Source: Heptranchias perlo | Taxonomy: Eukaryota | Direction of reading: 5' to 3' | DNA length: 64,000 nt | Assembly: GCF_035084215.1 (NCBI RefSeq) | Contig: NC_090364.1 | Span: 8,680,001 to 8,744,000, forward strand | Shown here: positions 4,938 through 64,000 of the stretch, one piece after another | How the letters are laid out: each line of letters starts with the position of its first letter | Position numbering within the stretch: the first letter of the stretch is position 1 | Program-made: the position numbers and the translations under genes | Notes under the pieces: model-generated | Seen by the model: the letters and a program-made list of their open reading frames with translations, nothing else | What the model was told of the DNA's origin: nothing | The model's database searches: none

Positions 4938-5033
4938 ATGAATTCCTAGGTATGCCAGAACTACCACCAGGATTGTGAGACTGCTATCAACAAGCAGATT
5001 AAGATGGAGCTCTCTGCCTCCTATCTTTCTGTG
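4938..5033 (+). pseudogene. Ferritin pseudogene: exon 1 plus part of intron 1; exons 2-4 not found
   Basis: ATG AAT TCC TAG ... reads [31 protein letters not shown]; stop at codon 4, 6-nt deletion, GT donor; 5034-5400 resembles intron 1 of the intact genes. Confidence 0.9.
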
Positions 5034-13052: not shown

Positions 13053-13400
13053 ATCTTTGAGTAAAACTGTGAAAAAAGTGTTACCATTTTTTTTTGTGTG
13101 CCACATCCAGTCGCAACCAAATTAAACCAAGATCCCATTGTGCTCATCGATTATGCACTCCAGTCCCTGCAATGTCCATCAGTCGCGGAAAGCCTCGACC
13201 ATACTGGCGACACCCCGTGCTCCTTCCTCAGGGCCACCCAGGCGCAGAGAATGCCGCGGAAGAGAGGCAGGCAGTCGGAGCGACCGCCCTCACGGGTCAC
13301 GTCTAACCTGGACCTGTGGATGGTAACCTTGGCCAGGCCCGGGAGCAGACCCACGAGGATGTCCTCCGACTTGCCTGACCCCCCCTCCTCACCGGGCGGC
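13053..13400 (-). mobile_element. Tx1/L1-like LINE 3' fragment in the promoter of ferritin gene A
   Basis: Minus frame LLPGLAKVTIHRSR..DCLPLFRG resembles the Tx1 ORF2 C-terminus; 15-bp near-perfect TSD CT(C/G)ATTGGCTCTGGA at 13038-13052 and 13401-13415. Confidence 0.7.
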
Positions 13401-13552
13401 CTGATTGGCTCTGGATGCCATCCCCATCCCATCCTGTGCTGATTGGAATCCTTGGACATGGCAGCTGTTTGATTGGTTGACAAGAGTGGCCAGTCATCAT
13501 TGATGATGTCATTTCCTGGATTTCATGCTAGGTTGCGCTCCAGGGGTATAAA
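13401..13552 (+). promoter_or_regulatory. Core promoter of ferritin gene A: three inverted CCAAT boxes, CRE-like TGATGTCA, TATA box
   Basis: ATTGG at 13404, 13442, 13472; TATAAA 13547-13552; layout conserved with the gene B promoter. Confidence 0.8.
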
Positions 13553-13631
13553 TTCAGGTCTTCTGGCACTATAGTTCCAAATTAATAGTGGTACTGAAAC
13601 TAACTTAGAGTGTTTGTAGAATTTTTGAAAA

Positions 13632-18067
<4,436 letters not shown>

Positions 18068-21840: not shown

Positions 21841-22040
21841 TCTGATTGGCTTTGGGTACCATACCCAAAGATTTCTCCTTATTGGTTAGTTAGAAAAGGC
21901 ATACCCAAAGCTTATCCTGTGTTGATTGGAGTCCTGAAACATGGCAACTGCTTGATTGGTTAACAAGAGTGGTTAATCAACATAGATGATGTCATTTCCT
22001 GGATTTTAAACAGGTGGGTGTATCCCTCCCACAGTATAAA
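21841..22040 (+). promoter_or_regulatory. Core promoter of ferritin gene B: four inverted CCAAT boxes, CRE-like site, TATA box
   Basis: ATTGG at 21845, 21881, 21925, 21955; TATAAA 22035-22040. Confidence 0.8.
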
Positions 22041-22080
22041 TTCAAGTCTTCTCAGGGTAAAGTCTTAGACATTTAGTATT

Positions 22081-22111
22081 GTTGCTGTTTAAATAGTGTT
22101 TGAACTGATTC
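22081..22111 (+). promoter_or_regulatory. Degenerate iron-responsive element (IRE) in the 5' UTR of ferritin B
   Basis: TG-T-TTAAA-TAGTGT-TTGAA-C versus canonical TG-C-TTCAA-CAGTGT-TTGAA-C; bulge C and loop C1 both changed to T. Confidence 0.65.
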
Positions 22112-22136
22112 TCCTGTCCAAAAGCTCACGTAAAGG

Positions 22137-23892
<1,756 letters not shown>

Positions 23893-25476: not shown

Positions 25477-26682
25477 TGCCATATGGTGAGCGAGAAGGAG
25501 AATCCCTGCATAAATTCCAGGCGCATAGCTCTACTGAGCTCAGTAATTTCTTCCAGGCTACGTGTAGTGTTACTGATTATATCTCTACAGATGATGCAGC
25601 TTCCTCTCTCTCATGCATCTGAGCCAGCACACCTGTGTTAACTGATTGTATCTCTAAGGCTAAACAAGCTCCCTCTCAATGTTGGGCTCAGTGACTCCTC
25701 CCAGTTAGTTCTGGTAATGATACCATTCATGGTCAAAGGAAATAAATTAATAAAATTTAACAATGAGCGAAAGGATGTTAAAGTAGTTCTGATTTTTAAA
25801 GAGTGACTTGATGGTGAGTCACCCTCTTTAATGGAATGGTCGATGGGTGCATTTGTTCAGATATCACCATTCTCCCAGAGCAGCAAAAGGTTGATCTGGA
25901 CACAAATGGTACTTTAAATTAAATAAATATATCAGTCTGATGCTTGATTCTGCTATAACTCCAAAATGGCTGAATTTTGAATTGTGGCCTTATTTCCACA
26001 TTATGTGGAAGTATTGGCCATTAAGGTACTGAAAGTCCACTGTGAAGAGGAGGAGGAGCATTCTTGCAATCCACTTGCATATTGTTGCTGCAGTTTCTAT
26101 GGGGCAGCTGCACCACTGGGACAATGGTCAAGGAAATGGCGTCTGGATTACTGTTCATCAGTGTTTGGTATGGGAGTTTTTAATCCTGATCTTTCTTCTG
26201 GTGCTGGGGTACAGAATACAGGGACACCCACTTTCCAGGTGGTCGCACTTTGTATCTGACTGCCCATTTCACCTCAAACATTGGCCACCTCAATCCTTCT
26301 CCTCTTCTCCCCTCTCCCAACTTGGTTAATGCTTGACCTGGAGTTCAATGGTCAGCATTGCTTTGTTCCACCCATCTCCAAGTCTAACCAGTTGGCAAGA
26401 AAAGGCTTATTGATAAAATTCAACGCACAACACTCTCATTTGGTAGTTAAATTACCCATAAACTAATTTCCCTACATAGCTGGTCGGGTTGTGTGCACAG
26501 TGTGCAGGTATTCAGTTAGCAGAGATCCAGAGGTGAATGGCTGAGAGGAAGGGAGTTTAGAAGCTCACGGACACAAACAAGGGATTAAGCTAAGGACGTT
26601 TACTTTACAGACGAGAGGTCGTCTTCGCGCTTTTATTCCAATACTTTACTGAAAAAAAGTTATATGTGTGGACTGTTAAATG

Positions 26683-26717
26683 ATGCAAAACATCAAATGC
26701 GTGGTGGTGGGAGATGG
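26683..26717 (+). CDS. Rac-like gene 1 exon 1 (coding)
   Basis: [18 protein letters not shown] donor. Confidence 0.92.
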
Positions 26718-29700
26718 GTGAGTAATCCTTATCACCTCCCTGATGGTTTTACCTGTTTTATATAAATATATATTTTATCTGAACTATCTGGAAGTGATAC
26801 AAAGATCGATTCCTTTCCATTCTTCCTCCCTTTCCTGAAGGCACTGACTTGTACTTGAATACGTTTCACAGAGGCTTGCCTCCCTTCAGGCCAAGTGACC
26901 ATTTTTCAGCTGTAAACTTGCTGCATGTTGGGCTAATCTGCATTCATCCAACTCTGGCCTCTTGTGCCCCCTCCATTTCCTTCACCCCCACTATTGGCGG
27001 CCGTGCCTTCAGCTGTCTAGGCCATAAGCTTTGGAATTCCACCCGTAAACCCCTCCGCCTCTCTCTCCTCCTTTAAGCCGCTCCTTAAAACCTACCACTT
27101 TGACCAAGCTCTTGGTCACCCATCCCAATATCTCCTTATGTAGCCAGGCGTCAAATTTTGTTTGATAACCGTCCTGTGAAGCACCTTGGGACATTTCGCA
27201 ACGTTAGAGGCGCCATATAAACGCAGGTTGTTGTTGATGATGAAGCAATAATCCACTGGCAACTGTTTGGCAGCAGGGAGGGGACGACAAAAGAGTAAAG
27301 GAAAGAATGCCTTACACCAGCAATGGTTCACCATTGGTGTTGCCCCACTGACACTGCACACACAGCAAAACTCCCATTGCTTTCCGTGGGACTGACGATA
27401 AGCTGGACACTCTCTTCTTTTTGCAGAGCTGTTGGTAAAACATGTCTTCTTATCACTTACACAACCAACGACTTCCCTGAGGAGTACATTCCTACTGTGT
27501 GAGTATCTGGTGCTACTTTTTAAAATTTTTACTTTGTGCCCCTCAATTTGAGAAACATTTGCTTTGGGGATAGAGGTGCTGAAATTCCTCGGGTTGCGAT
27601 TACATTTTTGCAATTTCACACCCCAGGTCTTCCATCTCTGGCTCAAGTGAGACTGATAATGTAGTGGGTCATTTTGATTGATATTAAAGTCGCGGGCACC
27701 GTGTGCCCAGATTTCCAGATACGGAACAAGCTCCGCCCCACTACTGCAAATTCGTATAATTACCCCGCTAGTGCCAACTAGTGGTGTACCTGAAACCACC
27801 AGGGTAAGACAGTGTATTGTTTCGGTTTTCCAAGTGTGCCTTGGTGTTGCCAAGGGGTGTATTGTGGGATGTTGGCTGCTCTGCCGGCCTCCTTTGACTG
27901 CGGACTACAACTGCCCTGATCCTCCAAAGCAACATTGCTTTTATATTGGTCAGCTTTAGGGTTGCCAACCCTCCAGGATCGCCCTGGAGTCTCCAGGAAT
28001 AAAGACTAATCTCCAGGACACTGCTGCGAGCAACACCCAGGAGATAATTGTGTTTCTTTTTAAACTTTCTTTGAACATTTTTGTTTACTAGTTATAAATA
28101 GATTGGACACTTGGAGGGAAAAAAAACTGTTTGACTGACAGTCAAGAATCATCCAATCGGGTAACGGAGAGTCTATTTGCGTTTCTAATTGGCGTGCGAA
28201 GGCGGTATGTTATGAGGATGGGCAGATTGGTCGACCAATGGCGGGAATGTGGGGGCAGGGCGGTTGGTCATGTGATGAAACCTCCAGGAATATATCCAAC
28301 CAGAGATGGCAACCCAAGTCAGCTTCTCAAAATAACAGGACCGCCCTGTGACAATTCGAAGCCAATGAATATCCCTCAACCGCCCAATCACACAGTGAAC
28401 TGATTTTTAGTTTGTAAAGTTAGCGCTTTGCCTCTTACTTATATTTCTTCAATAGATTTTGAAAACATACTTTATAAGGGCCCAATTTAAAGAAAAATTC
28501 TTTACCTTCCTTCAGAGGTCTAGTTCTCGACCCAGGCCTGGACCCCTGAGGTGTGCCCCACTCCTGTCAATGCTGAGGCTGGTGTGCCTCTTCCTTCTTG
28601 GCCTACCAGCTTGGGAAGCCTCTTGAGAGGCTGAGGATGCAGGAACTCCTGGCTTAGGGAGTCCCCGCCCTCGAAGCCCGCTCCCTCCACGTCAGTGACT
28701 TTCTTTTGGATGGGGTCTTCCTTCAAAGTGGTCACAGCAATCTCAGGTGCAAGTCTGGGACCCTCTGTATCTAGGTCCCAACGGAGTTCCCTGCCACTCT
28801 AATGGATTCCCACTGTAGTTGTGGTGAGAATCAGTTGAGCAATGTTAAGGCCCATAGTATAAAATATGTACATATTCAGTCCCCATTTTACACCTTACAT
28901 TTTGTCTTTGTTTTTATATAATACATTATTACTTGTTGTTCTCCCATATCATCACATACAGTAAGTCAGAGACTATTGTCTCTCTCATCTGTCTATGTGG
29001 TCTTCATGTTGCTGTTTCTTTCTCTGTGTCTCCTCTTCTGCTTCTCTTGCTCTCTGACTCCTTGCTCCTCCCTCCGTCTGTTTCCTTTCGGGTGGGAGGT
29101 GATGGGTGATGTGGCGGGGAAAGGAGCTACCAGTGGTTGCCGGTTGCATTTGCCGTGGGGGTTGTGGGGAAAATGTGGCCCTCGTCTCATTCCTCTCCCC
29201 AGTTACTCACGTTCCCGCAACCCATCGCTCGCATTGCATCCCCATCCCTTCCCCTTCCCGCTACCTCCCCTTCCCAGCACACTGTCATTCCCATCACTAC
29301 CTCACGTCTTCCCCTTTGAACTATCTCCTCAACCCCTGTGCCCTCCCCTTCCTCTTGCTCTGCTCTGTCGCTCGCTCCCACTCGTACCCCCACATTTCCT
29401 TCACCACACGGACTGCAACGGTTCAAGAAGGCGGCTCACCAGCACCTTCTCAAGGGCAATTAGGGATGGGCAATAAATGCTGGCCTCGCCAGCGATGCCC
29501 ACATCCCATTTTTAAAAAAAAGTTTACATTTCTGCAAAATAACTTCCTATGTCCATATTTGGAATGGGTTTTGCATTTATAAACTTGTCATGCTGTAATT
29601 ACACCCTCCCACAAGTGGTGGCTCTGTTCCACTTCCGTTTTGCATCTCCCAGCTCTTCAGCTGTCTCTCCACACTGTAGCATTATCTTATATTTCACCCG

Positions 29701-32700
29701 ATGTCCTGCTGTGTTTTTATTCCCGTTACACTGGTGAGCCCATTTTAAACTTTAACAATTTGTATATCCTTTTTTTAAAGTTTCAGTATTTCGTCCCTCA
29801 TTAGTTTTCCTGCCTCCCTTCCGTCTCTGGACTCCCGTTTCCTTCACCAACTCACAGGCTTCCAGGTTCCCTTCCAACCCGCCCACCCACCCAAATCCAA
29901 CCTCATTGAATGTTCTGCTGAGCATATCGGGTCTTCCGCACTGAAATTGAAGTTCCGCCCCTCCAGTTTTGCCCCTGATGTCAACCCCTGCTGATATTTC
30001 TCCTCAGGGACCTCCTGTTGATCATTTTGTGCCGTTTCTGTCCCCCACTGGAGATATCCACTTCCTCGCCCCAATGTCATCCGTGCTGATTCTTCTGCTC
30101 AGCCCTCTTTCTCCGTTTGCTCACGGGACTCCCTTTCTGCTGCGGCAGCTTCTCCTGCCCCCACCTGGCCTAGAGCAAACTTTTTCTGCTCCCGGCAGCT
30201 AATCACTGATTGTGTTTTTGGGAACATGGATATCCTCCCCCTTCACTCTTTCAGCATTGCAGTCCTCGTATTTTGGTTAAGTAGCTGCCACTTTAAGCCT
30301 GTAGGAATTGCTGGATGAAGATAGACCGAGGTCCATCTAGTCCATCCTGGTGGTCGCAGAATGTCAATGGAGAACCTCCCAGTCATGTGTGGAGGACGCT
30401 TAAAATGGCTGGTCTCCATTCAAAATACAAATATCTCCTATTGGCCACCAGTTCTACCTAGTTTTGTATTGAAAGTGTTCCCAATATAGAAAGAGAAAGA
30501 ATTGCATTTATATAGCACTTTTCACAACCTCAACCAAAGCATTTTACAGCCAATAAAGCACTTTACAAGTATAGTCGCTGTTGTCATGTAGAAAACACTG
30601 CAGCCAATTTGCACAAAGCAAGCTCCCACAAACAGCAACACAATGATCAGATAGTCTGTTTTAGAGATGTTGGTTGAGGGGTAAATTTTGGGCCAAAGAC
30701 ACTGGAAAAAAAAACCCCTGCTCTTCTCCGAATAATGCCATTGGATCTTTTACATCCACCTGAGAGAGCAGATGGGGCCTTGGCGTAACATCACGTCCAA
30801 AAGACGGCACCTCTGACAGTGCAGCTCTCCCTCAGTACTGCACCCGGATGTCAGCCTAGATCTTGTGCTCAAGTCTCTGGAGTGGGACTTGACTCCGCAA
30901 CCTTCTGACTCAGGAGGGCAAGAATGCTACCCACTGAGCCAAGGCTGACACCTACTTTAAAATCCACATCTGTCTAGTAAATGAAAATTAGCCTAGAGAG
31001 GCTCCCACCTACTAGTTACACAGTTTCTGTTTGGACTGAAGTCTTTTTTTGCCTTCCTTTACAGTTTTGATAACTATTCTACCACTGTGACGGTTGATGG
31101 TCACGTAGTGAACCTAGGATTGTGGGACACAGCAGGACAGGAAGACTATGACAGGCTCCGACCACTCTCCTACCCGCAGACTGTAAGAATATTAACACAG
31201 CAATTCTCTCTTTGTCTCTCTACTTTCTTCCTTTTACCAAGTTACCTCCTAAGAAAGCACAATAGTTTGACGTGGAGTTCAGCGGAATGAAACAATACTA
31301 TTGTAGGACTACTCGGTTGTTCATTTTACTTTCCTCTTTTCCAGGATGTATTTGTGATCTGTTTTTCCCTGGTCAGCCCTGCTTCTTTTCAAAATGTCCG
31401 TGTCAAGGTGAGTCAGGGGACATTTGGACTTTTAGCACAGGAAGTGGCCATTTAGCTGATTGTATCTGTGTGGGTCACATCGGAGAGATCTACTCCAATC
31501 TGGCTTCTCTGCTATTTTTCCATAAATTTTAATATCGTTCCTTTTCAACTGTTTTTCCAATTCAATGCCTTGACCTCAATCAGCTACTTGTGGTAGTGCA
31601 TTCCATAATCTAATAAAACTGTCTTCTTCCTTTGTGCTTCTGAGTTTATGTCACCTTGTTCCAGATTCACTGTCCAATCATAGAAATTTACAGCACAGAA
31701 GGAGGCCATTTGGCCCATCGTGTCTGTGCCGACTGAAAAGAAGCCATCCAGCTTAATCCCTCTTTCCAGCTCTCGGTCCGTAGTCTTGTAGGTTACAGCA
31801 TCTCAAGTGCACATCCAAGTACTCTTTAAATGCGAAGGGGCCTTGGCGTAACATCACGTCCAAAAGACGGCACCTCCGACAGTGCAGCACTCCCTCAGTA
31901 CTGCATCCGAAATGCGAGGAGTGTTTCTGCCTCTATCACTCTTTCAGGCAGTGAGTTCCAGACCCCCACCACCCTCTGGGTGAAAAGATTTCTCCTCAAC
32001 TCCCCTCTAATCCTTCTACTTCAAATCTATGCCCCCCTGGTTATTGACCTCTCTACTAAGGGAAATAGGCCCTTCCCAACCACTCTATTTAGGCCCCTCA
32101 TAATTTTATACACCAGTAGAAATAATCATCCTTTATTCTCTGAACCCTTTAATAATTTTGAGACGTCCCATTCAACTCCCCCCCTAACCTTCTCTGCTCT
32201 GATGAGTCCAACCTTAGTTTTTCCAAATTTCTCATTGCAACTATATCCTCTCAAGCCTGGTTATCACCCCAGTCCTAGACATTTATTGATTAATGATTTT
32301 TGTGCTCATCAAGGTATTTATAGTCCCCCGCTGTTTAAAGCAGGCGTGTTGGTGTTAACGCGATTTGCCCGCTTTACGTGGTGGACGCTAAAACCAAAAA
32401 GGTAGATTACCAACATATTTTTAAAAACAGGATATCTCACTTAGCGACTGCCTCTCCTAATTGTTAGCAGTTGCATCCAGAATCTCATCACTAAGGTAAT
32501 TGCACTTTAACGAGGTGTGAACAGCTGATTGAACTTGCTCGGAAACCCAACTCCGCCTGAAGTTAGCAGAGCCTTTTAAATTGGTCAGTGGGGGGTAAGT
32601 ACATGGGGAACTGCCTGAAATAGTCGGCATTCTTAATGCGTTATAAGCAGTGCCTTTGTAATTGACTCTTATGGTAATGGGAAATGGTTCGGGCCATTTG

Positions 32701-35700
32701 GCCGAGATAGATGGCTGCCCGTGTTAAGCCAGGGCGTAAGTTGTGGAAACTGTATTACAAATTGTTTTTTTTATATAGAACATTTTGGGATAAATTGTCA
32801 ACTTGCAGCCTGGGCATAAAACTGTCACTGTAGATTGGCCGCCTGTTGTAGAAACGGCCTGAGTTTTGTTTCCGTTGAAATCAATGGAAATACAAATCGG
32901 GCGGTTTCTATAACAAGCTTTACACTGGGGCTCCAAGTTGAAAATTTACCCCTTTCTCTCTCAATAGTTCCCTTAAGTGGACCTTATCTCCTGCAATCCG
33001 GACCCTGTATTTTTAATGATAATCTGCCCTTCTTGGTGTTGCATAACCCAAAGATTAACGATTACCATTACTTGCAGTGATCTCTTTATTGATTAGTAAT
33101 CTAATACTATACTGCCGCTCTCTGGTGAAATATTACACATAAATCATAATTTTTACAGATTTAAGCAACTAAAATTATGCACAATTTAATGGAAATGGAA
33201 AGTGTTAAATAGTTTAGCAAGTCAAAATATTAAATCTAAATCAATAAATTGGGAAAAATCTGAAATGGATTAATTACCCTTTTTTCAGAAAAGCCTATTT
33301 TGGAAGAGTAATTTCTGGATTACTAATGTAATCTGGATTACTCAGTATGTCTTTGACCTCTCCACCTCAGCATCAGTAGGTCCTGAATTATGAAGTATGT
33401 AATGCCAGCCTCACTCTACGAGTCCCGGCCCTCTGATCAAATCTCAGGACTCAGAAATGTTCTGTTCAAAAACTTTCAACATCTTTCAGTAGCTATCCTC
33501 GCAGATTTCCCACATCCCCTTGCTTACCAGGACTATACAATAACTCATTAGCCTAGGAGCTTGTTTTTGGATGCAGTTGGTTTCCCAGGCAAACTGACAA
33601 AGCTTAAAGGTCCCCGAACACCTCCGTTTTAAAGTTCTCATCCTTGTGTTCAAACCCCTCCAAGGCCTCGCCCCTCCTTATCTCTGTAACCTCCTCCAAC
33701 CCTACGACCCTCCAGCAGCTCTGCATTCCTCCAACTCTGGTCCCTACTTCCTTCACTCCACCACTGATGGCCATGCCTTCAGCCCACTAGGTCCTAAGCT
33801 CTGGAAATCCCTCCCTAAAACTCTCTGCCTCTCTCTCCTCCTTTAAGACGCTCTTGAAAACCTATCTCTCTGACCACTTGTCCTAATGTCCCCTTCTTTG
33901 GCTTGGTGTCAATTTTTGGTCTGATTACATTCTTGTGAAGCGCCTTGGGACTTTTTACTACGTTAATGGCGCTATATAAATGCAAGTTGTTAATTATGGA
34001 GTATTACAATTCAGAAATATAAATGGCATTGAATTAAACACAGTATCCTACAGAAACCAAGATACATTTTCATCTGCATAGTTTCACTCCATTTACATGT
34101 TACTAGATAAAAACAATTAATAAACTTATCTCATTCTGGAAGTTTGCTGTTTACAACATAGCTCAACTTCATTTTGAGCTATAAATAAATCCATCCCTTC
34201 AATAGGATCAGGCTCAGCTGTGATGCCTCTTGCGGCCAAATAATTCGCTAAAACCTATTGTTCAGACTTGCAACGTGAATGGCCAATCGGGCAAGGCACC
34301 AGAGGGAAGAGAAGAAAATTGTCAGGGAGGAAAATTTCTTGAAAAAAGGATAGGTGTTTGGGGAATAAGAATAGTGTTCTTGGGTTTCCAACTGATCTGC
34401 GTGAGAAAATGCCAGTGTGCCTACAAGTTCAGCATGTAGCTATATTGCCAATAAAGAAACCTTGGGGTAGAATTTCCCCAGAGTTCTCATGTAAGTTTGA
34501 CGGAGGATCGGTGGAAACGGCGTAAAAGACCAGTTACGCTGTATTTCCCGCCAAAGTCATGGCAGGAGAGCGGAAATTCCAGATGATTTTCTGCAATGGT
34601 GGCAGTGTTTGCCTTCAGGTAGAGGACAAAATGGGCAGTGTCACATCGGACGCCCGTTATACGCCCAGATATTCAATCCCATTGACCTCAACAGACCGGA
34701 GTATCGGCGGGGCGTAAAACGGACATTCCATTCGATACGGGCCACGATGAACATCTACCCTGTTGTCTTTAAGAAGTTGAGTCGAGGTGAGTCCCAGGGA
34801 GTGTGTCAATATTTGCAGGGGATGCACCAGCACAGGGAACTTAGTAAACCACCAGACTAATCCAATATCCCGAGCTTCTAAACATTCTGTTCAACATTTG
34901 CCCATTTGCTTTCGGTTTATTTGTTTCAATTTGCATTTAACACTTAGAAATTTTGGCCCTCGTGGGTGGGAGAGACAGAAAATGCAAATGCTGGATGGAA
35001 TTTGAATGATTTATGACCTGCCCCAATTCAGTTTCCCTCATTATTTCTGTGTAATAGACAAAGCTTCCAACAGGAAGACAGTCAGGATTTGGATCACTGT
35101 AACAGGAGCACAGATCTCAAAGGTTACCAGTCATCTGCTTCCTACTACCTTCGTAGAATCATAGAATGATACAGCACAGAAGGAGGCCATTCGTCCCATC
35201 GTGCCTGTGCCAGCTCTTTGAAAGAGCAATCCAATTAGTCTCACTCCCCTTCTCTTTCCCCGTAGCCCTGCAGATTTTTCAAGTGTTTAACTAATTCCCT
35301 TTTGAAAATTATTATTGAATCTGCTTTCCAGATCATAACAACTCGCTGTGTAAAAAATGTTCTCCTCGTCTCACCTCGTTTTTTGCCAATTGCCTTAAAT
35401 CTGTGTCCTGATGAGTTCTGACGAAAGGTCTTCGACCTGAAACGTTAACTCTGTTTCTTTCTCCACAGATGCTCCCTCACTTGCTGAGCTTCTCCAGCAT
35501 TTTCTGTTTTTATTTCCAATCTCCATCATCTGCAGTATTTTGCTTTTGGTTAAATCTGTGTCCTCCGATTAACGACCCGTCTGCCACTGGAAACAGTTTC
35601 TCCTTATTTACTCTATCAAAACCCTTCATGATTTTGAACACCTCTATCAAATCTCCCCTTAACCTTCTCTGCTCCAAGGAGAACAACCCCAGTTTCTCTA

Positions 35701-38550
35701 GTCTCTCCACATAACTGAAGTTACTCTAAACCATTTTCTCAGGCGCTACAATTTTGTGCAGTATAATATTGGCCTTATTCTCAAACAGCTGCCCTTTGGC
35801 ATCCATTACAATGCAGTTCAATAGTACATCACTCAGTGGAAAAATTGGCCGTCAAATTGTTAGAAAACTGACCAGGCAGCGCTCCACAGTCTGGGAAAGT
35901 CATGGATTAACGTAGGAAATTATGTAATGATTCTTGATTTCAATAACAATGAGAATACAGGGAGGAGGGGGAACATGTAGAACGGCACATTTGGACTCTA
36001 GTGGGAACAAGAGAAGAAAACTTAGATGGTCAAAGACTTTAATAGTGCAGATAAAGTAGAGAAAGACAAAGGTTCTGATGGGGGAGATGGGGGCAAGAGG
36101 TGAGAGGAGGTGCACCGATCAGATGACGAGTCTTTTTTAAGTATTCCTACCAGGAATGTGGGTGAGATGTCCAAGATTCTCCAGATATGATGCAAATAAT
36201 GGGCTAGATTTTCCATCCATTGATTATGAATGGATGGCAATGACATCACATGAATGGAGAACATAAGAACATAAGAAATAGGAGCGGGAGTAGGCCATGC
36301 GGCCCCTCGAGCCTTCTCCGTCATTCAATAAGATGTTGGCTGATCTTCAACCTCAACTCCATTTTCCTGCCTTATCCCCATATCCCTTGATTCCCTTAGA
36401 GTGCAAAAATCTATCGATCTCCGCTTTGAATATACTCAACGACTGAGCATCCACAGCCCTCTGGGGTTGGGAATTCCAAATATTCACGACCCTCTGAGTG
36501 AAGAAATTTCTCCTCATCTCAGTCCTAAATGGCCGACCCCTTATCCTGACACTATGTCCCCTAGTTCTAGACTCTCAAGCTGGGGGAAACAATATGGCTT
36601 CCATAGCTTTGATATACAAGCACAATAGTAAACAAAAGTAAACCTTAAATGGAACCATGTTGGCCAAATTTTCTGCGCCAATAAGTCAGCACTTGACCAT
36701 TTTTTTTGCTTCTCCTTACACAGTGGCACCCTGAGGTGAAACGACACTGCCCCAACTCTCCCATCATCCTTGTGGGCACCAAGCTGGACTTGCGAGATGA
36801 CAAAGAAACCATAGAGAAACTGAAGGAGAAGAACCTGGCGCCCATCAGCCACGAACAAGGCGCACAGATAGCGAAGGAGATTGGTATGTGACATTTCTAC
36901 AAGAGGAGCAAAAAGCTTTTTTTGCACATTGGTTTGACCATTGACAGTCTCATGAGTGGCGACATATATTGGATCATAGTGTTAATAAGGGCATGGGGTA
37001 AGGTGTGTGCCCATCCTCTGAACAAAAAGAAATCAATCAAGTTCAAGATGCAATGGAATATTTATAGTCACTTGACGACCAAATGTTCACATCTCCTCTA
37101 GGGCTCGATATCCGTTCATGTTTTTATGAGACACAATCAAATTAGCCCTGGAGCAAGATCTCCATATACTATCTGATCTGCAAGTCAAAATCGCTGGCCT
37201 GTATCCCGAAAACTATCTCCCCCGCCAAAACCCGTTCTCCATTTTGTGGGCAGAAGGGGAAGACAGCTAGGCCCAGAAATTCAGCAGACTTTTTTTATTT
37301 GTTCATGGGATGTGGGCGTCGCTTGCAAGGCCTGCATTTATTGCCCATCCCTAATTGTCCTTGAGAAGATGCTGGTGAGCCGCCTTCTTGAACCGCTGCA
37401 GTCCCTGTGGTGAAGGTTCTCCCACAGTGCTGTTAGGTAGGGAGTTCCAGGATTTTGACCCAGCGACGATGAAGGAACGGCCGATATATTTCCAAGTCGG
37501 GATGGTGTGTGACTTGGAGGGGAACGTGCAGGTGGTGTTATTCCCATGTGCCTGCTGCCCCTGTCCTTCTAGGTGGTAGAAGTCGCGGATTTGGGAGGTG
37601 CTGTGGAAGAAGCCCTGGCAAGTCGCTGCAGTGCATCCAGTGGATAGTACACACTGCAGCCACGGTGCGCCGGTGGTGAAGAGAGTGAATGTTTAGGGTG
37701 GTGGATGGGATGCCAATCAAGCGGGCTGCTTTGTCCTGGATGGTGTCGAGCTTCTTGAGTGTTGTTACTGGCTCTAAATGGCCCGCAAGGCCTCCAACAT
37801 GGCGGGCAGGGAGCACATGCTCATTATGAGCTGGAAGTGCGTCACCCGCCATATTGGTAAAGGCCAAAAGATCGGTGTGCAGTGCTCACACCTGAAACAG
37901 ACGTTAGGTCCTTTGCAAATGTAAATGAAGGGCATAACGCCTGTTTGAAGAACGCCAGCCACTACCCACCCACCGATCACTGCCGCTATTTCCCAACCCG
38001 GTTGCCCTCAATTCCTCACTTACCCGAGGGCCGCTGCTTGGGCAGCTCGCCGCCATGACGTCAATGAGGCCCTATATCGTCGGGGGTGCCTTGATTATTC
38101 CCTGTGCTTACCCCCACCCTGCCACCTCCCCCCGCACCCCCTCCCTGCCCCCACGCAGCCAAAAATGGGCACACCCAAATTTCCAGGCCCTTCTACCTTA
38201 ACAATAGTTCATTCAGAAACATTACGTAATAGGGCCAATTTCACAAAAGTCTACTCCCCGGGGATGAGTCTCACTCACCGGCCATCCACATCAGGAAATC
38301 GCAGGCATGCTGCCCACGATCCGTTAAAGTCGATAAAGGAAGTTTTGGAGGGGGAGGTACTGAGCAAAATACAATAGGAGGACAAGAGCTGAAAGTGTCT
38401 GTCTTATTTTTAATTTCTACAGGAGCGGTGAAGTTTATTGAAAGTTCGGCGTTCAAACAGAAGGGCCTAAAGATGATATTCGAGGAGGCCATTCGGGCTG
38501 TGATCTTCCAACCAGTACAGAAGAGAAAGTTACAGTGCCGTGTTCTGTAG
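26683..38550 (+). CDS. Divergent Rac-subfamily Rho GTPase (191 aa; 192 if the in-frame ATG at 26680 is used), join(26683..26717,27427..27498,31065..31182,31345..31407,36724..36883,38423..38550)
   Basis: [191 protein letters not shown]; exon sizes 35/72/118/63/160/128 follow the RAC1-type structure. Confidence 0.95.
26945..27240 (+). mobile_element. L2-type 3' fragment (Rac intron 1)
   Basis: [12 protein letters not shown] motif and tail. Confidence 0.75.
27427..27498 (+). CDS. Rac-like gene 1 exon 2
   Basis: [24 protein letters not shown]; AG/GT borders. Confidence 0.95.
27957..28317. mobile_element. hAT-type MITE
   Basis: TIRs TAGGGTTGCCA / TGGCAACCCAA; perfect 8-bp TSD GTCAGCTT (27949-27956, 28318-28325). 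Confidence 0.85.
29400..29520 (+). mobile_element. LINE 3' end fragment (family of 62990-63840)
   Basis: CACCACACGGACTGCA..GGGCAATTAGGGATGGGCAATAAATGC. Confidence 0.8.
30490..30952 (-). mobile_element. Deu-domain SINE, full length
   Basis: Reverse complement similar to 5817-6265, including the tRNA-like head. Confidence 0.8.
31065..31182 (+). CDS. Rac-like gene 1 exon 3
   Basis: [26 protein letters not shown]. Confidence 0.95.
31345..31407 (+). CDS. Rac-like gene 1 exon 4
   Basis: [21 protein letters not shown]. Confidence 0.95.
31678..32270 (-). mobile_element. CR1 3' fragment(s) with a 74-bp SINE-derived insert
   Basis: CATAGAA tail, antisense ORF2 C-terminus. Confidence 0.75.
32786..32952. 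mobile_element. Palindromic MITE
   Basis: GGGATAAATTGTCAACTTG / CAAGTTGAAAATTTACCCC termini; central TTTCCGTTGAAATCAATGGAAA palindrome. Confidence 0.7.
33620..33991 (+). mobile_element. L2-type 3' fragment
   Basis: [12 protein letters not shown].. and tail. Confidence 0.75.
35153..35720 (-). mobile_element. CR1 3' fragment interrupted by a Penelope-derived insert (35410-35549)
   Basis: Minus ORF 35510-35710 [25 protein letters not shown]; insert flanked by 15-bp TSD TTAAATCTGTGTCCT. Confidence 0.85.
35413..35451 (+). ncRNA. Minimal type I hammerhead ribozyme-like motif
   Basis: GAGUU-CUGACGA-A-AGGUC(UUC)GACCU-GAAA-CG-UU-AACUC; 5-bp stem I, 5-bp stem II, palindromic AACGUU. Confidence 0.65.
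36258..36592 (-). mobile_element. CR1 3' fragment
   Basis: AGAACATAAGAACATAAGAAATAGGAGC tail, same family as 9161-11712. Confidence 0.85.
36724..36883 (+). CDS. Rac-like gene 1 exon 5
   Basis: [27 protein letters not shown] (G4 motif and Rho insert). Confidence 0.95.
37290..37765 (-). mobile_element. LINE 3' fragment (family of 62990-63840)
   Basis: [26 protein letters not shown] in minus ORF 37538-37867. Confidence 0.85.
38423..38550 (+). CDS. Rac-like gene 1 exon 6 (coding)
   Basis: [12 protein letters not shown]...[13 protein letters not shown] box. Confidence 0.93.
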
Positions 38551-38666
38551 AGTAATTATCTAGAAATTATTGGTGGGGTAAACCCAGGGCAATTTCTGAG
38601 ACGTCGTGCAACATAAAGGAGTTTGAAATCGATTGGAGTTTTTGTTACCAATCTTCTCCCCTCTTA

Positions 38667-39030
38667 TAGAATCATAGAATCTTACAGCACGGAAGGAGGC
38701 CATTCGGCCCATCGTGCCTATGCCGCCTATTTGAAAGAGCTATCCAATTAGTCCCACTCCCCTGCTCTTTCCTCACAGCCCTGCAATTTTCTCCCCTTCA
38801 AGTATTTATCCAATTCCCTTTTGAAAGTTACTACTGAATCTGCTTCCACCGCCCTTTCAGGTGGTGGGTTCCAGATCATATCAACTCGCTGCGTAAAAAG
38901 ATTTCTCCTCATCTTACCTCTGGCTCTTTGGCCAACTACATTAAATCTGTGTCCTCTGGTTATTGACCCTTCTTCCAATGGAAACAGTTTCTCCTTATTT
39001 ACTCTATCAAAACCCTTCATGATTTTGAAC
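38667..39030 (-). mobile_element. CR1 3' fragment
   Basis: Minus ORF 38748-39020. Confidence 0.85.
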
Positions 39031-39324
39031 GCCTCTTCTCCTGAAGGCCTTGGGAATGAAGTCCCATGGCTACTGGATGCTCTCCTGTACTTCTCCCAAG
39101 TGGCAATTGTTCATATGTGAGACATTAGCTGGTTGGAGGGTTTCACTATCCCTGTTCCTCACTGGACTTCCCAGCAGAGGTTTTAGGCCCTTTGTTTTTT
39201 AATCTTTTGTTTTGGGAGGTGGAGAATTTGACTTGGCACTTTTAGAAAGGCCAGCAAAGAAACCAAAATAAATTCACTGCCAAAATTTCCTTTGGAGAGG
39301 CACCAGTGCAAATCAGCTACAACA

Positions 39325-39805
39325 CCAGGAGGTGCAGCACAGATTCACCAGAATGATACCAGGGCTTAAAGGGTGAAATTATGAGGACAACCTTGGCTTG
39401 TATTCCCTTGAGTATAGAAGAGGTGATCTGATCGAGGTGTTTAAAATGTTAAAAGGATTTCATAGGGTAGGTACAGAGAAGCCATTTCCTCTGGTGAGGG
39501 GAATCAAGAACAAGGGGACACAATCTTCAAATTAGAGCCAGGCCATTCAGGAGCGAAATTAGGAAGCACTTTTTCACTCAAAGGGTAGTAGAAATCTGGA
39601 ATTCTCAACCCTCAAAAGGCTGTGGGGTCTGGGGGAGAATTGGAGCTTTCAAGACCGTGATAGATTTTTGTTGGGTAAGGGTATCGAGGGATACGGAGCA
39701 AAGGTGGGAAAATGGAGTCGATGGGGCAGATCAGCCGTGATCTAATTGAATGGCGGAGCAGGCTCGAGGGGCTGAATGGCCTCTTCCTGTTCCTTATGTT
39801 CCGTA
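39325..39805 (+). mobile_element. CR1 3' fragment
   Basis: Degraded ORF2 C-terminus and 3' hairpin. Confidence 0.75.
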
Positions 39806-39859
39806 TGCTCCAGGCACCATTCCAATCAAGCAAGTTCCTGTTAAGGGTGAACATTAGGC

Positions 39860-41471
39860 TCCAAAGTGCTTCTGTCTTTACCAAGGAAAAATATACCAGT
39901 AAAGGAAGATTTGGTTGAGATACTGGCTGGGCTAAAAATTGATAAAGAGGAGGTACTTGAAAGGCTGGCTGTGCTTAAAGTAGATAAGTCACCCGGTCCG
40001 GATGCGATGCATCCTAAGCTGCTGAGGGAAGTAAGGGTGGAAATTACGGAAGTACTGGCCATAATCTTCCAAACATCTGTAGATACAGGGAGTGGTTCCA
40101 GAGGACTGGAGAATTGCAAATGTTACACCCTTGTTCAAAAAAGGGTGTAAGGATAAACCCAGCAACTATAGGTCAGTCAGTTTAACCTCAGTGGTGGGGA
40201 AACTTTTAGAAACGATAATCCAGGACAGAATTAACAGTCATTTGGATGAGGGTGGATTGATTAGGGAAAGCCAACATGGGTTTGTTAAAGGCAAATCATG
40301 TTTAACTAACCTGATAGAGTTTTTTGATGAGATAACAGAGAGGGTAGATGAGGGCAATGCAGTTGATGTGGTGTATATGGACTTTCAAAAGGCGTTTGAT
40401 AAAGTGCCACATGGTAGGCTTATCATCAAGATTGCAGCCCATGGAATAAAGGGGGCAGCAGCAACATGGATACAGAATTGGCTAAGTGACAGCAAACAGA
40501 CACTAATGGTGAACGGTTGTTTTATGGACTGGAGGGAGGTGTACAGTGGTGTTCCCCAGGGGTCGGTGCTGGGACCACTGCTTTTCTTGATATATATTAA
40601 TGACTTGGACTTGGGTGTACAGGGCACAATTTCCAAATTTGCAGATGACACAAAACTTGGAAGGATAGTGAACAGTGAGGAGGATAGTGATAGACTTCAA
40701 GAGGATAAAGACAGGCTGGTGACATGGGCAGACACGTGGCAGATGAAATTTATTGCAGAAAAATGCAGAATGATACATTTCAGTAGGAAGAATGAGGAGA
40801 GACAATATAAACTAGAGGGTACAACTCTAAAAAGGGTAAAGGAACAGAGAGATCTGGGGGTGTCTGTGCACAAATTGTTGAAGGTGGCAGGGCAGGTTGA
40901 GAAAATGGTTAAAAAAGCATATGGGATCCTAGGCTTTATAAATAGAGGCATAGAGTGCAAAAGTATGGAAGTCATGATGAACCATTATAAAACACTGGTT
41001 TTGGCCACAACTAGAGCATTGAATCCAGTTCTGGGCACTGCACTTCAGGAAAGATGTGAAGACCTTTGAAAGGGTGCAGAAGAGATTTACTAGAATGATT
41101 CCAGGGATGAGGGACTTTAGTTACGTGGAGAGATTGGAGAAGCTAGGGTTGTTCTCCTTGGAACAGAGACAGTAGAACCAGAGGACATAGATTTAAGGTG
41201 ATTGGCAAAAGAACCAAAGGTGACATGAGGAAAACATTTTTTACACAGCGAGTGCTTAGGATCTGGAATGCACTGCCCGAGGGGGTGGTGGAGGCACATT
41301 CAATCATGGTCTTCAAAAGGAAACTGGATAAGTACTTGAAAGGAAAAAATTTGCCGGGCTATGGGGATAGGGCGGGGGAATGGGACTACCTGGATTGCTC
41401 TTGCATAGAGCCGGCATGGACTCGATGGGCCGAATGGCCTCCTTCCACGCTGTAACCTTTCTATGATTCTA
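39860..41471 (+). mobile_element. CR1 LINE, 5'-truncated, RT domain
   Basis: ORF 40092-41069 with NYRSVSLTS, QHGF, YMDFQKAFDKV, GVPQGSVLGP, KFADD; TTCTATGA tail. Confidence 0.95.
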
Positions 41472-41489
41472 GGAGACCCAGATTTAAAA

Positions 41490-41830
41490 GAGGCACAGTG
41501 GATTAGACAGTGACCTTATATTTCTGGCACTCTGGTTCAGATCCAGCCCAGACTTCTCTCTCTTTCTCTGTTTGCTGTAAAGATCCTATGTGAATGTGGC
41601 AGAACAGCTTAGATTATCTCCCAGTGGGTGTGGGGACCACAGCGTAAAGCCGTCCCTAATTTGGCATTAAACTGGCAATCTCAGTCGGAGGGCGTAGGAT
41701 GGCTATTATTGGAAATGTGAAAATGATATACTGGTGCAGTTAGGGCTGGGGGCCAATGTTGCAGTAAAATAGAGGGAGTTTTACTCAGCATCTTAGCTAT
41801 GCTGTACTTGACTTGGGATTTCTCAATGCT
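41490..41830 (+). mobile_element. Old tRNA-derived SINE resembling LF-SINE
   Basis: TGGTTCAGATCCAGCCCAG B-box and AATTTGGCATTAAACTGGCAATCTCAGTCGGAGGG recall the LF-SINE consensus (from memory). Confidence 0.4.
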
Positions 41831-55264: not shown

Positions 55265-56507
55265 TGACAAATTTCTTAGAGTTTTTTGAGGATATAACTA
55301 GCAGGGTAGATAAAGGGGAACCAGTGGATGTAGTATATTTGGATTTTCAAAAGGCATTCGATAAGGTGCCACATAAAAGGTTGTTACACAAGATAAGAGC
55401 TCATGGGGTTGGGGGTAATATATTAGCATGGATAGAGAATTGGTTAAAGGACAGAAAACAGAGAGTAGGGATAAACAGGTCATTCTCAGGTTGGCAGGCT
55501 GCAACTAGTGGGGTACTGCAAGGAACGGTTTTTGGGCCTCAGCTATTTACAATCTATATTAATGACTTGGATGAAGGGACCGAGTGTAATGTATCCAAGT
55601 TTTCTGACGATACAAGGCTAGGTGGGAAAGTAAGCTGTGAGTCTGCAAAGGGATATAGACAGATTAAGTGAGTGGGCAAGAAGGTGGCAGATGGAGTATA
55701 ATGTGGGGAAATGTGAGATTAGTCACTTTGGTACGAAGAATAGAAAAACAGAATATTTTTTAAATGATGAGAAACTATTAAATGTTTGTGTTCCGAGAGG
55801 TTTGGGTGTCCTCGAACAAGAAACACAAAAAGTTAGTATGCAGATACAGCAAGCAATTAGGAAAGCAAATAGCATTTATTGCAAGGGGGTTGGAGTACAA
55901 GAGTAAGGAAGTCTTACTACAATTGTACAGGACTTTGGTGAGACCTCACCTGGAGTACTGCATACAGTTTTGGTCTCCTTATCTAAGGAAGGATATACTT
56001 GCCTTAGAGGCGGTGCAACAAAGGTTCACTAGATTAATTCCTGGGATGAGAGGGTTGTCCTATGAGGAGAGGTTGAGTAGAATGGGCCTAAACTCTCTGA
56101 AGTTTGCAAGAATGAGAGGTGATTTCATTGAAACATATAAGATTATGAGGGGGTTTGACAGGGTAGATGCTAAGAGGTTGTTTCCCCTGGCTAGAGAGTC
56201 TAGAACTAGGGGGTATTGTCTCAGGATAAGGGATCGGCCATTTAGGACTGAGATGCGGAGGAATTTCTTCACTCAGAGAGTTGTGAATCTTTGGAATTCT
56301 CTACCCCCAGAGGCCTATGGATGCTGAGTCGTTGATTATATTCAAGGCTAAGATCGATAGATTTTTGGACTTGAGGAGAATCAAGGGATATGGGGATCGG
56401 GCGGGAAAGTGGAGTTGAGGTCGAAGATCAGCCATGATCTGATTGAATGGCGGAGCAGGCTCATGGGGCCGTATGGCCTACTCCTGCTCCTATTTCTTAT
56501 GTTCTTA
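55265..56507 (+). mobile_element. CR1 LINE, 5'-truncated, inserted in a GATA-rich tract
   Basis: ORFs 55264-55671, 55637-55906, 55782-56327; close relative of 9161-11712. Confidence 0.95.
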
Positions 56508-57004
56508 TATGGATAGAGAGATAGGTGGATAGATCCAGATTGATAGACAGGCAGAAAGATAGATAAGTCATTGAAAGTAAACCTAAAAATATTACTTTAC
56601 ATTAAATTGCAGGAGTAGAACAAGAGGTCACAGGTTAAAACTAGTAAAAGGTAATCTCAGAATTGATATCAGGAAATTCGTCTGCACACAAAGAGTGATC
56701 AATGTATGGAATAGACTTTCAGGGAGAGTAGTGGAGGTGAAAACCCTGGAATCATTCAAGAAACAATTGGATGCTGCAATGGGGAGAGGTTAGGATCTCT
56801 CTGGATGGATGAACTAAGATGGACCGAATGGACTTCTTTATCTTTAATTATCCTGTGATATAGGAACAGGAGGAGTCCATTCAGCCCCTCGAGACTGTTC
56901 AGCCATTCAATTAGATCATGGCTGATCTGTATCTTAACTTCCATTTACCCGCTTTGGCTCTACATAGATAGATAGATTTGGTTGTAAAAACAGAAAGACA
57001 GATC

Positions 57005-57765
57005 ATTATCTGAATGGTGATAGATTGGGAAAAGGGGAGGTGCAACGAGACCTGGGTGCCCTCGTACACCAGTCGCTGAAAGCGAGCATTCAGGTGCAGC
57101 AAGCAGTTGGGAAGGCGAATGGTATGTTGGCCTTCATTGCAAGAGGATTTGAGTACAGGAGCAGGGATGTCTTACTGCAGTTGTACAGGGCCTTGGTGAG
57201 ACCACATCTGGAGTATTGTGTGCAATTTTGGTCTCCTTATCTGAGGATGTCCTTGCCATGGAGGGAATGCAACGAAGGTTTACCAGACTGATTACTGGGA
57301 TGGCAGGACTGACGTATGAGGAGAGATTGGGTCGACTTGGCCTATATTCACTCGAGTTTAGAAGAATGAGAGGTGATCTCATCGAAACATATAAAATTCT
57401 AACAGGACTAGACAGACTAGATGCAGGGAGGATGTTCCCGATGGTTGGGGAGTCCAGAACCAGGGTTCACAGTCTCAGGATATGGGGTATGCCATTTACA
57501 ACCGAGATGAGGAGAAATTTCTTCACTCAGAGGGTGGTGAACCTGTGGAATTCTCTACCACAGAAGGCAGTGGAGGCCAAGTCATTAGATGCATTCAAGA
57601 AGGAGATAGATATATTTCTTAATGCTGAAGGGATCAAGGGATAGGGGGGAAAAAGCAGGAACAGGGTACTGAGTTAGACGATCAGCCGTGATCATTTTGA
57701 ATGGCAGAGCAGGCCCGAAGGGCCGAATGGCCTACTCTTGCTCCTATTTTCTATATTTCTACAGA
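57005..57765 (+). mobile_element. CR1 3' fragment
   Basis: ORFs 57025-57291 and 57216-57644. Confidence 0.9.
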
Positions 57766-57889
57766 AACATATAAAAGCAGACAGATGGTTTGATTTCACA
57801 GGTGCTTTTTTATATATATATATATATATAGATAACCCAATGACAGGCAAATTCGAGCTGTTAAACTTCTTGGGAGTGGCAGTCTCAGA

Positions 57890-58075
57890 TTGACACCGCC
57901 CACAAGCAGAACGGTCCAATCAGAGACGGAAAGAGGCGGGGATGATTGACAGGAGAGACCGACAAACTTGCTGGTCTTGAGTGACACCCATTTCGAGCAA
58001 TAAACAGACGACCGGGCTACACAGTGGCCAATCAGTGCGGTTAGAGGGCGGGACTGGCGGTTCATGCTAGTTAAA
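57890..58075 (+). promoter_or_regulatory. CpG-rich, TATA-less promoter of Rac gene 2
   Basis: CCAATCAG at about 57916 and 58028; GC boxes (CCGCCC 57896, GAGGCGGGG, GGGCGGG about 58046) upstream of the ATG at 58244. Confidence 0.7.
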
Positions 58076-58243
58076 GCTGCAGCGCAGAGGTTGGGTGGTG
58101 GCTTGTGAGTGAGCTGAGCAGTGGCATCGGGATCTTTTCAATTGTGTTTATTTTTTTTTTTTGTTTCCTCCTGCTATAATATATATTTTGGCCAATTTAA
58201 CTTCTTGGGAGACTTCGAAGCCTCAGTTTACCAAAGTTGGAAG

Positions 58244-58278
58244 ATGCAAGCCATCAAATGTGTGGTGGTGGGGGATGG
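58244..58278 (+). CDS. Rac gene 2, first coding exon (rest of gene not seen in the window)
   Basis: ATG CAA GCC ATC AAA TGT GTG GTG GTG GGG GAT GG|GTGAGT = [12 protein letters not shown], identical to the RAC1/2/3 N-terminus; 35-nt exon. Confidence 0.9.
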
Positions 58279-62987: not shown

Positions 62988-63840
62988 TATAATGAAGCAG
63001 TCCGAGCCTGCATGCAGCAAGACCTGGACAACATCCAGGCTTGGGCTCATAAGTGGCAAGTAACATTCGTGCCAGATAAGTGCCAGGCAATGACCATCTC
63101 CAACAAGAGAGAGTCTAACCACCTCCCCTTGACATTACCATCGCCGAATCCCCCACCATCAACATCCTGGGGGTCACCATTGACCAGAAACTTAACTGGA
63201 CCAGTCACATAAATACTGTGGCTACAAGAGCAGGTCAGAGGCTGGGTATTCTGCGGCGAGTGACTCACCTCCTGACTCCCCAAAGCCTTTTCACCATCTA
63301 CAAGGCACAAGTCAGGAGTGTGATGGAATACTCTCCACTTGCCTGGATGAGCGCAGCTCCAACAACACTCAAGAAGCTCGACATCATCCAAGATAAAGCA
63401 GCCCGCTTGATTGGCACCCCATCCACCACCCTAAACATTCACTCCCTTCACCACCGGCGCACTGTGGCTGCAGTGTGCACCATCCACAGGATGCACTGCA
63501 GCAACTCGCCAAGGCTTCTTCGACAGCACCTCCCAAACCCGCGACCTCTACCACCTAGAAGGACAAGGGCAGCAGGCGCATGGGAACAACACCACCTGCA
63601 CGTTCCCCTCCAAGTCACACACCATCCCGACTTGGAAATATATCGCCGTTCCTTCATCGTCGCTGGGTCAAAATCCTGGAACTCCCTTCCTAACAGCACT
63701 GTGGGAGAACCGTCACCACACAGACTGCAGCGGTTCAAGAAGGCGGCTCACCACCACCTTCTTGAGGGCAATTAGGGATGGGCAATAAATGCCGGCCTTG
63801 CCAGCGACGCCCACATCCCGTGAACGAATAAAAAAAAATA
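62988..63840 (+). mobile_element. LINE 3' portion (CR1/L2 group), relatively intact, with poly(A)
   Basis: ORFs 63012-63212 (LQQDLDNIQAWA..WQV) and 63218-63775 (VRSVMEYS..SWNSLP); AATAAA and A tail. Confidence 0.9.
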
Positions 63841-64000
63841 ATAATGATCAGGAGCAGGACCATGGCCAGTTTTTGCCCTCCCTCACCCAGGCGTCCTGAG
63901 GCCCCTTTTGTAGTTCCCCAGCTGAGATCGGCTCACTTGGCTCAGAATCTGGGGCCTCCCCGATCTCTGGCAATAATGCTCACTGGGTAAACTTGCTGCC

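Follow-up and report, generated by a model that had tools for sequence, protein, structure and literature searches.

In the shark Heptranchias perlo, two Rac genes directly follow a cluster of ferritin genes, which raises the question of where the pair comes from and whether it holds a fourth vertebrate Rac ohnolog lost in mammals. Such an ohnolog, if true, would complete the 2R Rac quartet, and the evidence leans against it. What is new here is an ancient chondrichthyan paralogue of the known Rac family, racA; its neighbour racB is most likely the RAC2 orthologue, judging from position and by elimination.

The two Rac genes of the window

The window, i.e. the whole stretch of 64,000 nucleotides that was analysed, carries on its plus strand, in order, a ferritin exon-1 remnant, ferritin 1, ferritin 2, racA and the first exon of racB. 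Both Rac first exons that a sequence-only reading had placed downstream of the ferritins are thus found there, on the plus strand. racA (26680-38550, plus strand) is a complete gene of six coding exons, with all five introns of the GT-AG type. In the coordinate gene model its reading frame of 192 codons plus stop is open throughout, and the protein is identical in 192 of 192 residues to RefSeq XP_067830305.1 of the same species, listed in databases only under the automatic name 'ras-related C3 botulinum toxin substrate 1-like'. Exon 1 (26680..26717, 38 nt) offers two ATGs, at 26680 and 26683; exon 2 (27427..27498, 72 nt) holds S22T, A27D and G30E; exon 3 (31065..31182, 118 nt) has an altered beta2 strand and an unchanged switch II. 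Exon 4 (31345..31407, 63 nt) is followed by exon 5 (36724..36883, 160 nt), with the G4 box and the insert helix, and by exon 6 (38423..38550, 128 nt), with C157S in G5, a weakly basic tail, the CAAX box CRVL and the stop. Pfam Ras matches fall on three of these exons. An acceptor-like site about 70 nt 5' of the start (window 26598-26679) suggests an upstream non-coding exon; the same interval contains no promoter boxes comparable to those of racB. Exon 6 and its 3' flank were also sought in sequencing runs, and no RNA run was among those listed.

The first exon of racB (58132..58278, plus strand) lies 19.7 kb beyond the end of racA. Its 5' leader starts at about 58132-58153, and its 35 coding nucleotides (58244-58278) give a canonical Rac N-terminus. 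Upstream, a promoter-like stretch (57830..58131, plus strand; GC 0.54, CpG o/e 0.67), to which we attribute a putative promoter function, contains three CCAAT boxes (57837, 57916, 58028) and two GC boxes (57896, 58046). Neither tblastn nor a Rac profile run over six frames found further racB exons up to position 64000. In three of three RNA-like runs (X5-X7, all from one sample, their RNA status guessed by the tool) one contig each, of 366, 1822 and 1648 nt, shows racB joined by splicing to a Rac exon 2 that lies beyond the window. These contigs cover 58132/58153-58278 with no mismatch, leave the window exactly at the donor and continue with 30 letters of Rac exon 2, in which the canonical Ser22 is kept (by eye). 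The racB sequence covered here hence runs from exon 1 to 30 nt into exon 2 and gives the first 22 residues.

The two first exons share the end GATGG and the first nine intron bases, as had been pointed out from the sequence. The donor hexamer recurs at 6 of the 12 window donors, and a third Rac exon 1 matches through +6; as the motif comes down to a conserved codon pair and a common donor hexamer, with only three further shared bases, it carries little weight. That third exon 1, which has GC-rich flanks, appeared together with racA exon 1 in a DNA run from which the window itself may derive. Each differs from racB at 4 positions, so racA and racB are not especially close in exon 1, and since the third copy comes from elsewhere, at least one more Rac exists in the genome. 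Between racA and racB, the interval 43984-44049 bears a faint likeness to Rac exon 4 (6.1 bits, controls at most 4.3), with 32 of 63 nt identical, no AG acceptor and stops present; it is possibly a decayed third Rac copy, or chance.

Divergence and distribution of racA

The G1, G3/switch II and G4 boxes of racA and its W56 match RAC1, placing it within the Rac subfamily; in the window gene the P-loop, residues 31-40, W56, switch II, G4 and the CAAX box are all unchanged, the P-loop, switch II and G4 being identical to those of both RAC1 and RAC3. Over residues 1-177 racA is 80% identical to RAC1, from which it has 35 differences, 77-79% to RAC3 and 77-79% to the RAC2 rows. RAC2's S48, S107, L145 and D150 are absent from racA; the weakly basic tail with Gln-Pro recalls RAC2, a weak likeness. 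This tail has a net charge of +3 and lacks both C178 and the proline run; the charge is +3 in 12 of 12 shark racA rows, as against +3/+4 in RAC2 and +5/+6 in RAC1-type proteins. RhoG is, like racA, a divergent member of the Rac subfamily, and we take it to share V79 and H98-type residues with racA and to have one coding exon, where racA has six. The best PDB matches of racA exon 5 are RAC1 (81.9 bits), RAC2 (80.5) and RAC3 (75.1), whereas RhoG, proposed as 'RAC4' in PMC8625570, scores 57; these scores and the full-length search agree that racA is closer to RAC1-3 than to RhoG.

Among 177 aligned columns, 18 tell every one of the 12 racA rows apart from every one of the 28 canonical rows, and six of these are fixed in 12 of 12 racA rows: S22T, G30E, M45T, L79V, R102K and C157S. 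Position 27 is Ala in none of the 12. Canonical Rac is among the most invariant of vertebrate proteins: 155 of 177 columns do not vary across its 28 rows, against 113 of 177 in the 12 racA rows. The P-loop nevertheless is identical to that of RAC1 in 12 of 12 racA rows, and a CAAX-type end is found in 18 of 18.

A search with exon 6 returned five clusters among seven candidates, all chondrichthyan. From the cluster members and the best 120 of 5838 matches listed, racA orthologues occur in at least 13 sharks, five batoids and Callorhinchus; no bony-vertebrate protein with the racA residues is seen among the matches listed, and bony vertebrates may have a strongly diverged orthologue. In the protein tree the racA clade has a support of 100/100 and a stem of 0.34. 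The best tree sets it outside all canonical Racs (81/76), which is likely a long-branch effect: grouping of racA with RAC2 (p 0.18), RAC3 (0.29) or RAC1 (0.14) is in no case rejected. Judged by its sequence, racA is an ancient, divergent chondrichthyan paralogue and not a recent duplicate, because a divergent orthologue group spans sharks, batoids and the chimaera. The proposal that the pair includes a local duplicate is borne out by position and fails on age, racA being common to at least 19 chondrichthyan species. Among the open-licence papers listed by full-text searches, none was found that describes racA as a distinct paralogue, a fourth vertebrate Rac or the Rac repertoire of sharks. The batoid proteins (P0026, P0030, P0041, P0052, P0101) are far more diverged, with changes in the W97 region and the insert and a stem of 0.24.

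Linkage to ferritin is equally widespread. Ferritin copies and racA orthologues lie on contigs of equal size in 12 of the 13 species for which both are listed; the exception is Callorhinchus, whose racA and ferritin contigs measure 4.04 and 81.2 Mb, a mismatch that possibly comes from different assemblies. For C. plagiosum the agreement is one of accession proximity only. In S. torazame, racA and a ferritin share one scaffold of 566,999 bases, six locus numbers apart.

What racA does can be predicted from these residues. The P-loop, switch II, G4 box and CAAX box are all preserved, so it should have kept the action of a prenylated GTP/GDP switch, one with a weaker, RAC2-like membrane charge. 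Its effector set is most likely narrower than, or different from, that of RAC1 and RAC2, since S22T, G30E, the non-Ala residue 27 and M45T flank switch I and C157S lies in G5. Lapouge et al. 2000 are said to have found that Rac residues 22, 27 and 30 contact p67phox, with 27 and 30 setting Rac-versus-Cdc42 specificity. As all three are changed in racA, a loss of p67phox binding and NOX2 activation would be the first prediction. Position 45, Thr in 12 of 12 racA rows, corresponds to M45, named as an IQGAP-binding hotspot in PMC8625570. C157S, together with F/Y160, may alter nucleotide exchange. With its effector-side surface and G5 cysteine changed and kept so in all three chondrichthyan lineages, racA amounts to a natural specificity mutant open to direct assay.

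Chromosomal context and origin of the pair

In human, we take LFNG and DAGLB to mark the RAC1 region, MFNG and GGA1 that of RAC2 (22q13), and RFNG and GGA3 that of RAC3. To our knowledge, human RAC2 has no adjoining ferritins. Within the window, 145 of the 201 unmasked frames of at least 55 aa were compared with Pfam; the matches were confined to racA exons and one reverse transcriptase, therefore no flanking marker gene was detected there; orthologues of CYTH2, KDELR1 and GRIN2D were specifically absent from these frames. Paralogons were instead read from marker families in the matching rows of a table from the hagfish genome paper (PMC10972751, supplementary file 6), in which the bamboo shark has the code Chipun; the Rac and cytohesin families are not among the rows listed.

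In those rows the ferritin, BAX, NUCB and GYS families belong to linkage group O, and the KDELR, LFNG/MFNG/RFNG, GGA and DAGLB families to linkage group H. In the bamboo shark, NUCB2 and the FTH1-type ferritin are together on chr16. Its chr39 bears two arrays of tandem ferritins, one spanning 4.5-4.8 Mb and the other 10.6-10.7 Mb, and genes of the BAX and NUCB1 families at 0.2-0.4 Mb; the ferritin arrays account for 24 of the 30 first-listed chr39 rows (228 in all). This non-FTH1 array agrees with the earlier suggestion that the ferritins are of the FTL/M side. On the same chromosome a GGA1-type gene (10.85 Mb) and an MFNG-type gene (13.63 Mb) are both classed as CLGH beta1, corresponding to chicken chr1, and gene IDs 13195-13210, of which 7 of the 9 listed are H beta1, directly precede ferritins 13211 and 13212. 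Every classed H-group gene among the listed chr39 rows is beta1, and KDELR has no row for this chromosome. H alpha1 corresponds to chr21/chicken 14 (LFNG, KDELR2, GGA2) and H alpha2 to chr24/chicken 18 (GGA3), the paralogons of RAC1 and RAC3, respectively; none of these rows revealed where H beta2 lies in the shark. The candidate chr40 was rejected as H beta2, 13 of its 15 listed rows being CLGC alpha1.

By way of the ferritin array, we infer that the window sits on the equivalent of chr39. The locus chromosome is then most likely an H-beta1 segment, the RAC2 paralogon, a placement made at chromosome level only; the shark ferritin-array chromosome derives from the same ancestral segment as human 22q13 and chicken chr1. 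The sequence-only reading had suggested that the locus could be the fourth Rac paralogon and held that synteny to a RAC1, RAC2 or RAC3 region would speak against this; the synteny found through the array, again at chromosome level, is to the RAC2 region, chr39 being labelled H beta1 with GGA1 and MFNG in the rows of PMC10972751. Since ferritin belongs to group O and the Rac-region markers to group H, FTL linkage marks no fourth Rac paralogon. Two ancestral linkage groups meet in human 19q13.3, which makes FTL unusable as an H-group ohnologue marker; in sharks the FTL and RAC2 blocks go together. We also note that BAX, NUCB1 and the ferritin arrays (group O, with no class assigned) stand on chr39 beside the H beta1 block in the rows of PMC10972751. 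These group-O genes may represent the O-1 beta segment missed in PMC7269912, and the chr39 layout implies that the O/H joins may differ between sharks and tetrapods.

The other Rac genes of sharks bear on the same question. P0287 (three bamboo-shark relatives) and P0310 (Heterodontus) are RAC1-like and lie on contigs other than those of racA. P0043 falls in the RAC3 clade of the protein tree with a support of 100/99. The expectation of further Rac loci elsewhere therefore holds in part: RAC1-like and RAC3 proteins exist in other sharks, and H. perlo has one further Rac exon 1, while no separate shark rac2 was seen among the sequences listed. The 30 listed members of two RAC2 clusters, out of 528, include no shark sequence that carries the RAC2 signature residues. 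The C-terminal tails of P0287 and P0310 are changed relative to the near-invariant mammalian and Albula RAC1 tail. Two teleost cases proved uninformative. The tandem pair P0031/P0314 of the catfish Pangasianodon consists of near-identical sisters (100/97) with consecutive locus tags and is an independent recent tandem Rac pair. The killifish Rac P0261 lies on a contig of the same size as that of ferritin P0161, which is of little weight, since teleost chromosomes are fusions of several Rac paralogons.

We now propose an origin for the pair. With RAC1 and RAC3 accounted for in sharks, racB in the RAC2 slot is the simplest reading, and we consider it probable that racB occupies the RAC2 position and that racA split off from it in tandem long ago. 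The H-beta1-derived shark chromosome would also carry the group-O block of FTL, BAX and NUCB1, and racB, by its position, would be the canonical-type Rac of the H-beta1 segment. racA would have arisen from racB by tandem duplication before the chimaera/elasmobranch split, and its presence and divergence suggest a burst of change followed by intact retention.

That the array instead keeps a fourth 2R Rac seems unlikely. Either racB or a fast-evolved racA would then be the ohnolog, chr39 would also hold an H-beta2 segment beside the FTL block, and a true rac2 would lie elsewhere on chr39; racA would have its own effector set, absent from bony vertebrates, a combination that we likewise hold to be unlikely. 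Human 19q13.33 and Xenopus chr7 do join H-beta2 to the FTL block: on XTR7 the rows of PMC10972751 list nucb1 at 105.27 Mb, three ferritins at 105.37-105.42, gys at 105.47 and a group-H kdelr at 107.85. This union of O and H blocks is the basis of the sequence-only reading. In the bamboo shark, BAX and NUCB1 (0.2-0.4 Mb) and one ferritin array (4.5-4.8 Mb) lie away from the verified beta1 genes, and the protein tree ties racA to no paralogue. Chondrichthyans are also described as retaining more ohnologues than bony fish (PMC10115646). However, all classed H genes listed for chr39 are beta1, with no KDELR row among them, and racB as a beta2 gene demands a further shark rac2, of which none was seen. 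The skate supplement names no Rac ahead of sheet 5; from the order of the matches, Rac is apparently absent from its differentially retained ohnologues.

Quite unlikely, too, is that racA and racB are both extra beta1 copies, or relocated RAC1-type ones, with the one-to-one RAC2 orthologue as a third gene near MFNG. MFNG lies 2.8 Mb from GGA1, which makes a separate rac2 there possible, and the region is prone to tandem expansion, as the ferritin arrays show; yet this scheme needs one more gene than is seen. The exon-4-like trace between racA and racB would fit it but barely exceeds its controls (6.1 bits vs at most 4.3). Mammalian RAC2 is blood-restricted, whereas racB has a housekeeping-type promoter layout and was assembled in three of three RNA-like runs, which might fit this scheme too. 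Finally, that racA is a recent or decaying duplicate devoid of function is highly improbable and, as far as sequence can tell, already largely refuted by conservation. No racA RNA contig was seen in the RNA-like runs, and just 113 of 177 columns are invariant in 12 rows (155 in the 28 canonical rows); against this stand an open frame with canonical splice sites, full-length models in at least 19 species including the chimaera, a P-loop as in RAC1 in 12 of 12 rows and an identical exon-4-skipping model in two species (P0003, P0017).

The neighbouring ferritins and repeats

Ferritin 1 (13632..18067; exons 13632-13733, 16854-17000, 17388-17513 and 17912-18067) and ferritin 2 (22137..23892; exons 22137-22238, 22923-23069, 23418-23543 and 23737-23892) are intact plus-strand genes of four exons and 176 aa, identical to each other in 500 of 531 nt. 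The former matches P0168, XP_067830302.1, and the latter P0137, XP_067830304.1, each in 176 of 176 residues; these two and the racA accession share one H. perlo scaffold of 20,256,265 bases. By these identities the window comes from a hexanchiform shark, either H. perlo or a close relative. Upstream of both, the exon-1 remnant (4943..5033, plus strand) has no in-frame start codon and a 6-nt gap, and no further exons of it were found.

Ferroxidase positions 61/62/65 read A/K/C in ferritin 1 and E/K/R in ferritin 2. Like turtle L, both proteins have 176 aa, and they share Lys62 with turtle and mammalian L; the shark array chromosome, like the FTL locus, bears the BAX and NUCB1 families. Unlike L/M chains, they retain E27 and Q141 and give no IRE match: searches of both 5' ends (13450-13700 and 21950-22200) returned nothing at E up to 5. 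Both may have left IRP control. A degenerate IRE look-alike was noted by eye near 22076-22108, and Rfam gave 0 matches across the window at gathering score. Shark Lys62 ferritins (P0137-P0141, P0171-P0198) form a clade with a support of 99/99. In the best tree, built from a set with no vertebrate FTH1, this clade joins other shark ferritins and not turtle L, a grouping with L not being rejected (p 0.19), so that, on this tree, an L-like chain may have arisen twice. The turtle model P0160 is BAX fused with ferritin L. Large shark ferritin expansions (P0136, P0139, P0185-P0226) include at least 24 Stegostoma models on one chromosome of 26.9 Mb.

The self-repeated share of the window is about 39%. 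Positions 1-290 form a tandem repeat with a unit of about 20 nt (by eye), and decayed LINE reverse-transcriptase frames, presumably CR1-like, lie at 9261-11541 (minus strand) and at 39851-41452, 55255-57641 and 63119-63772 (plus strand).
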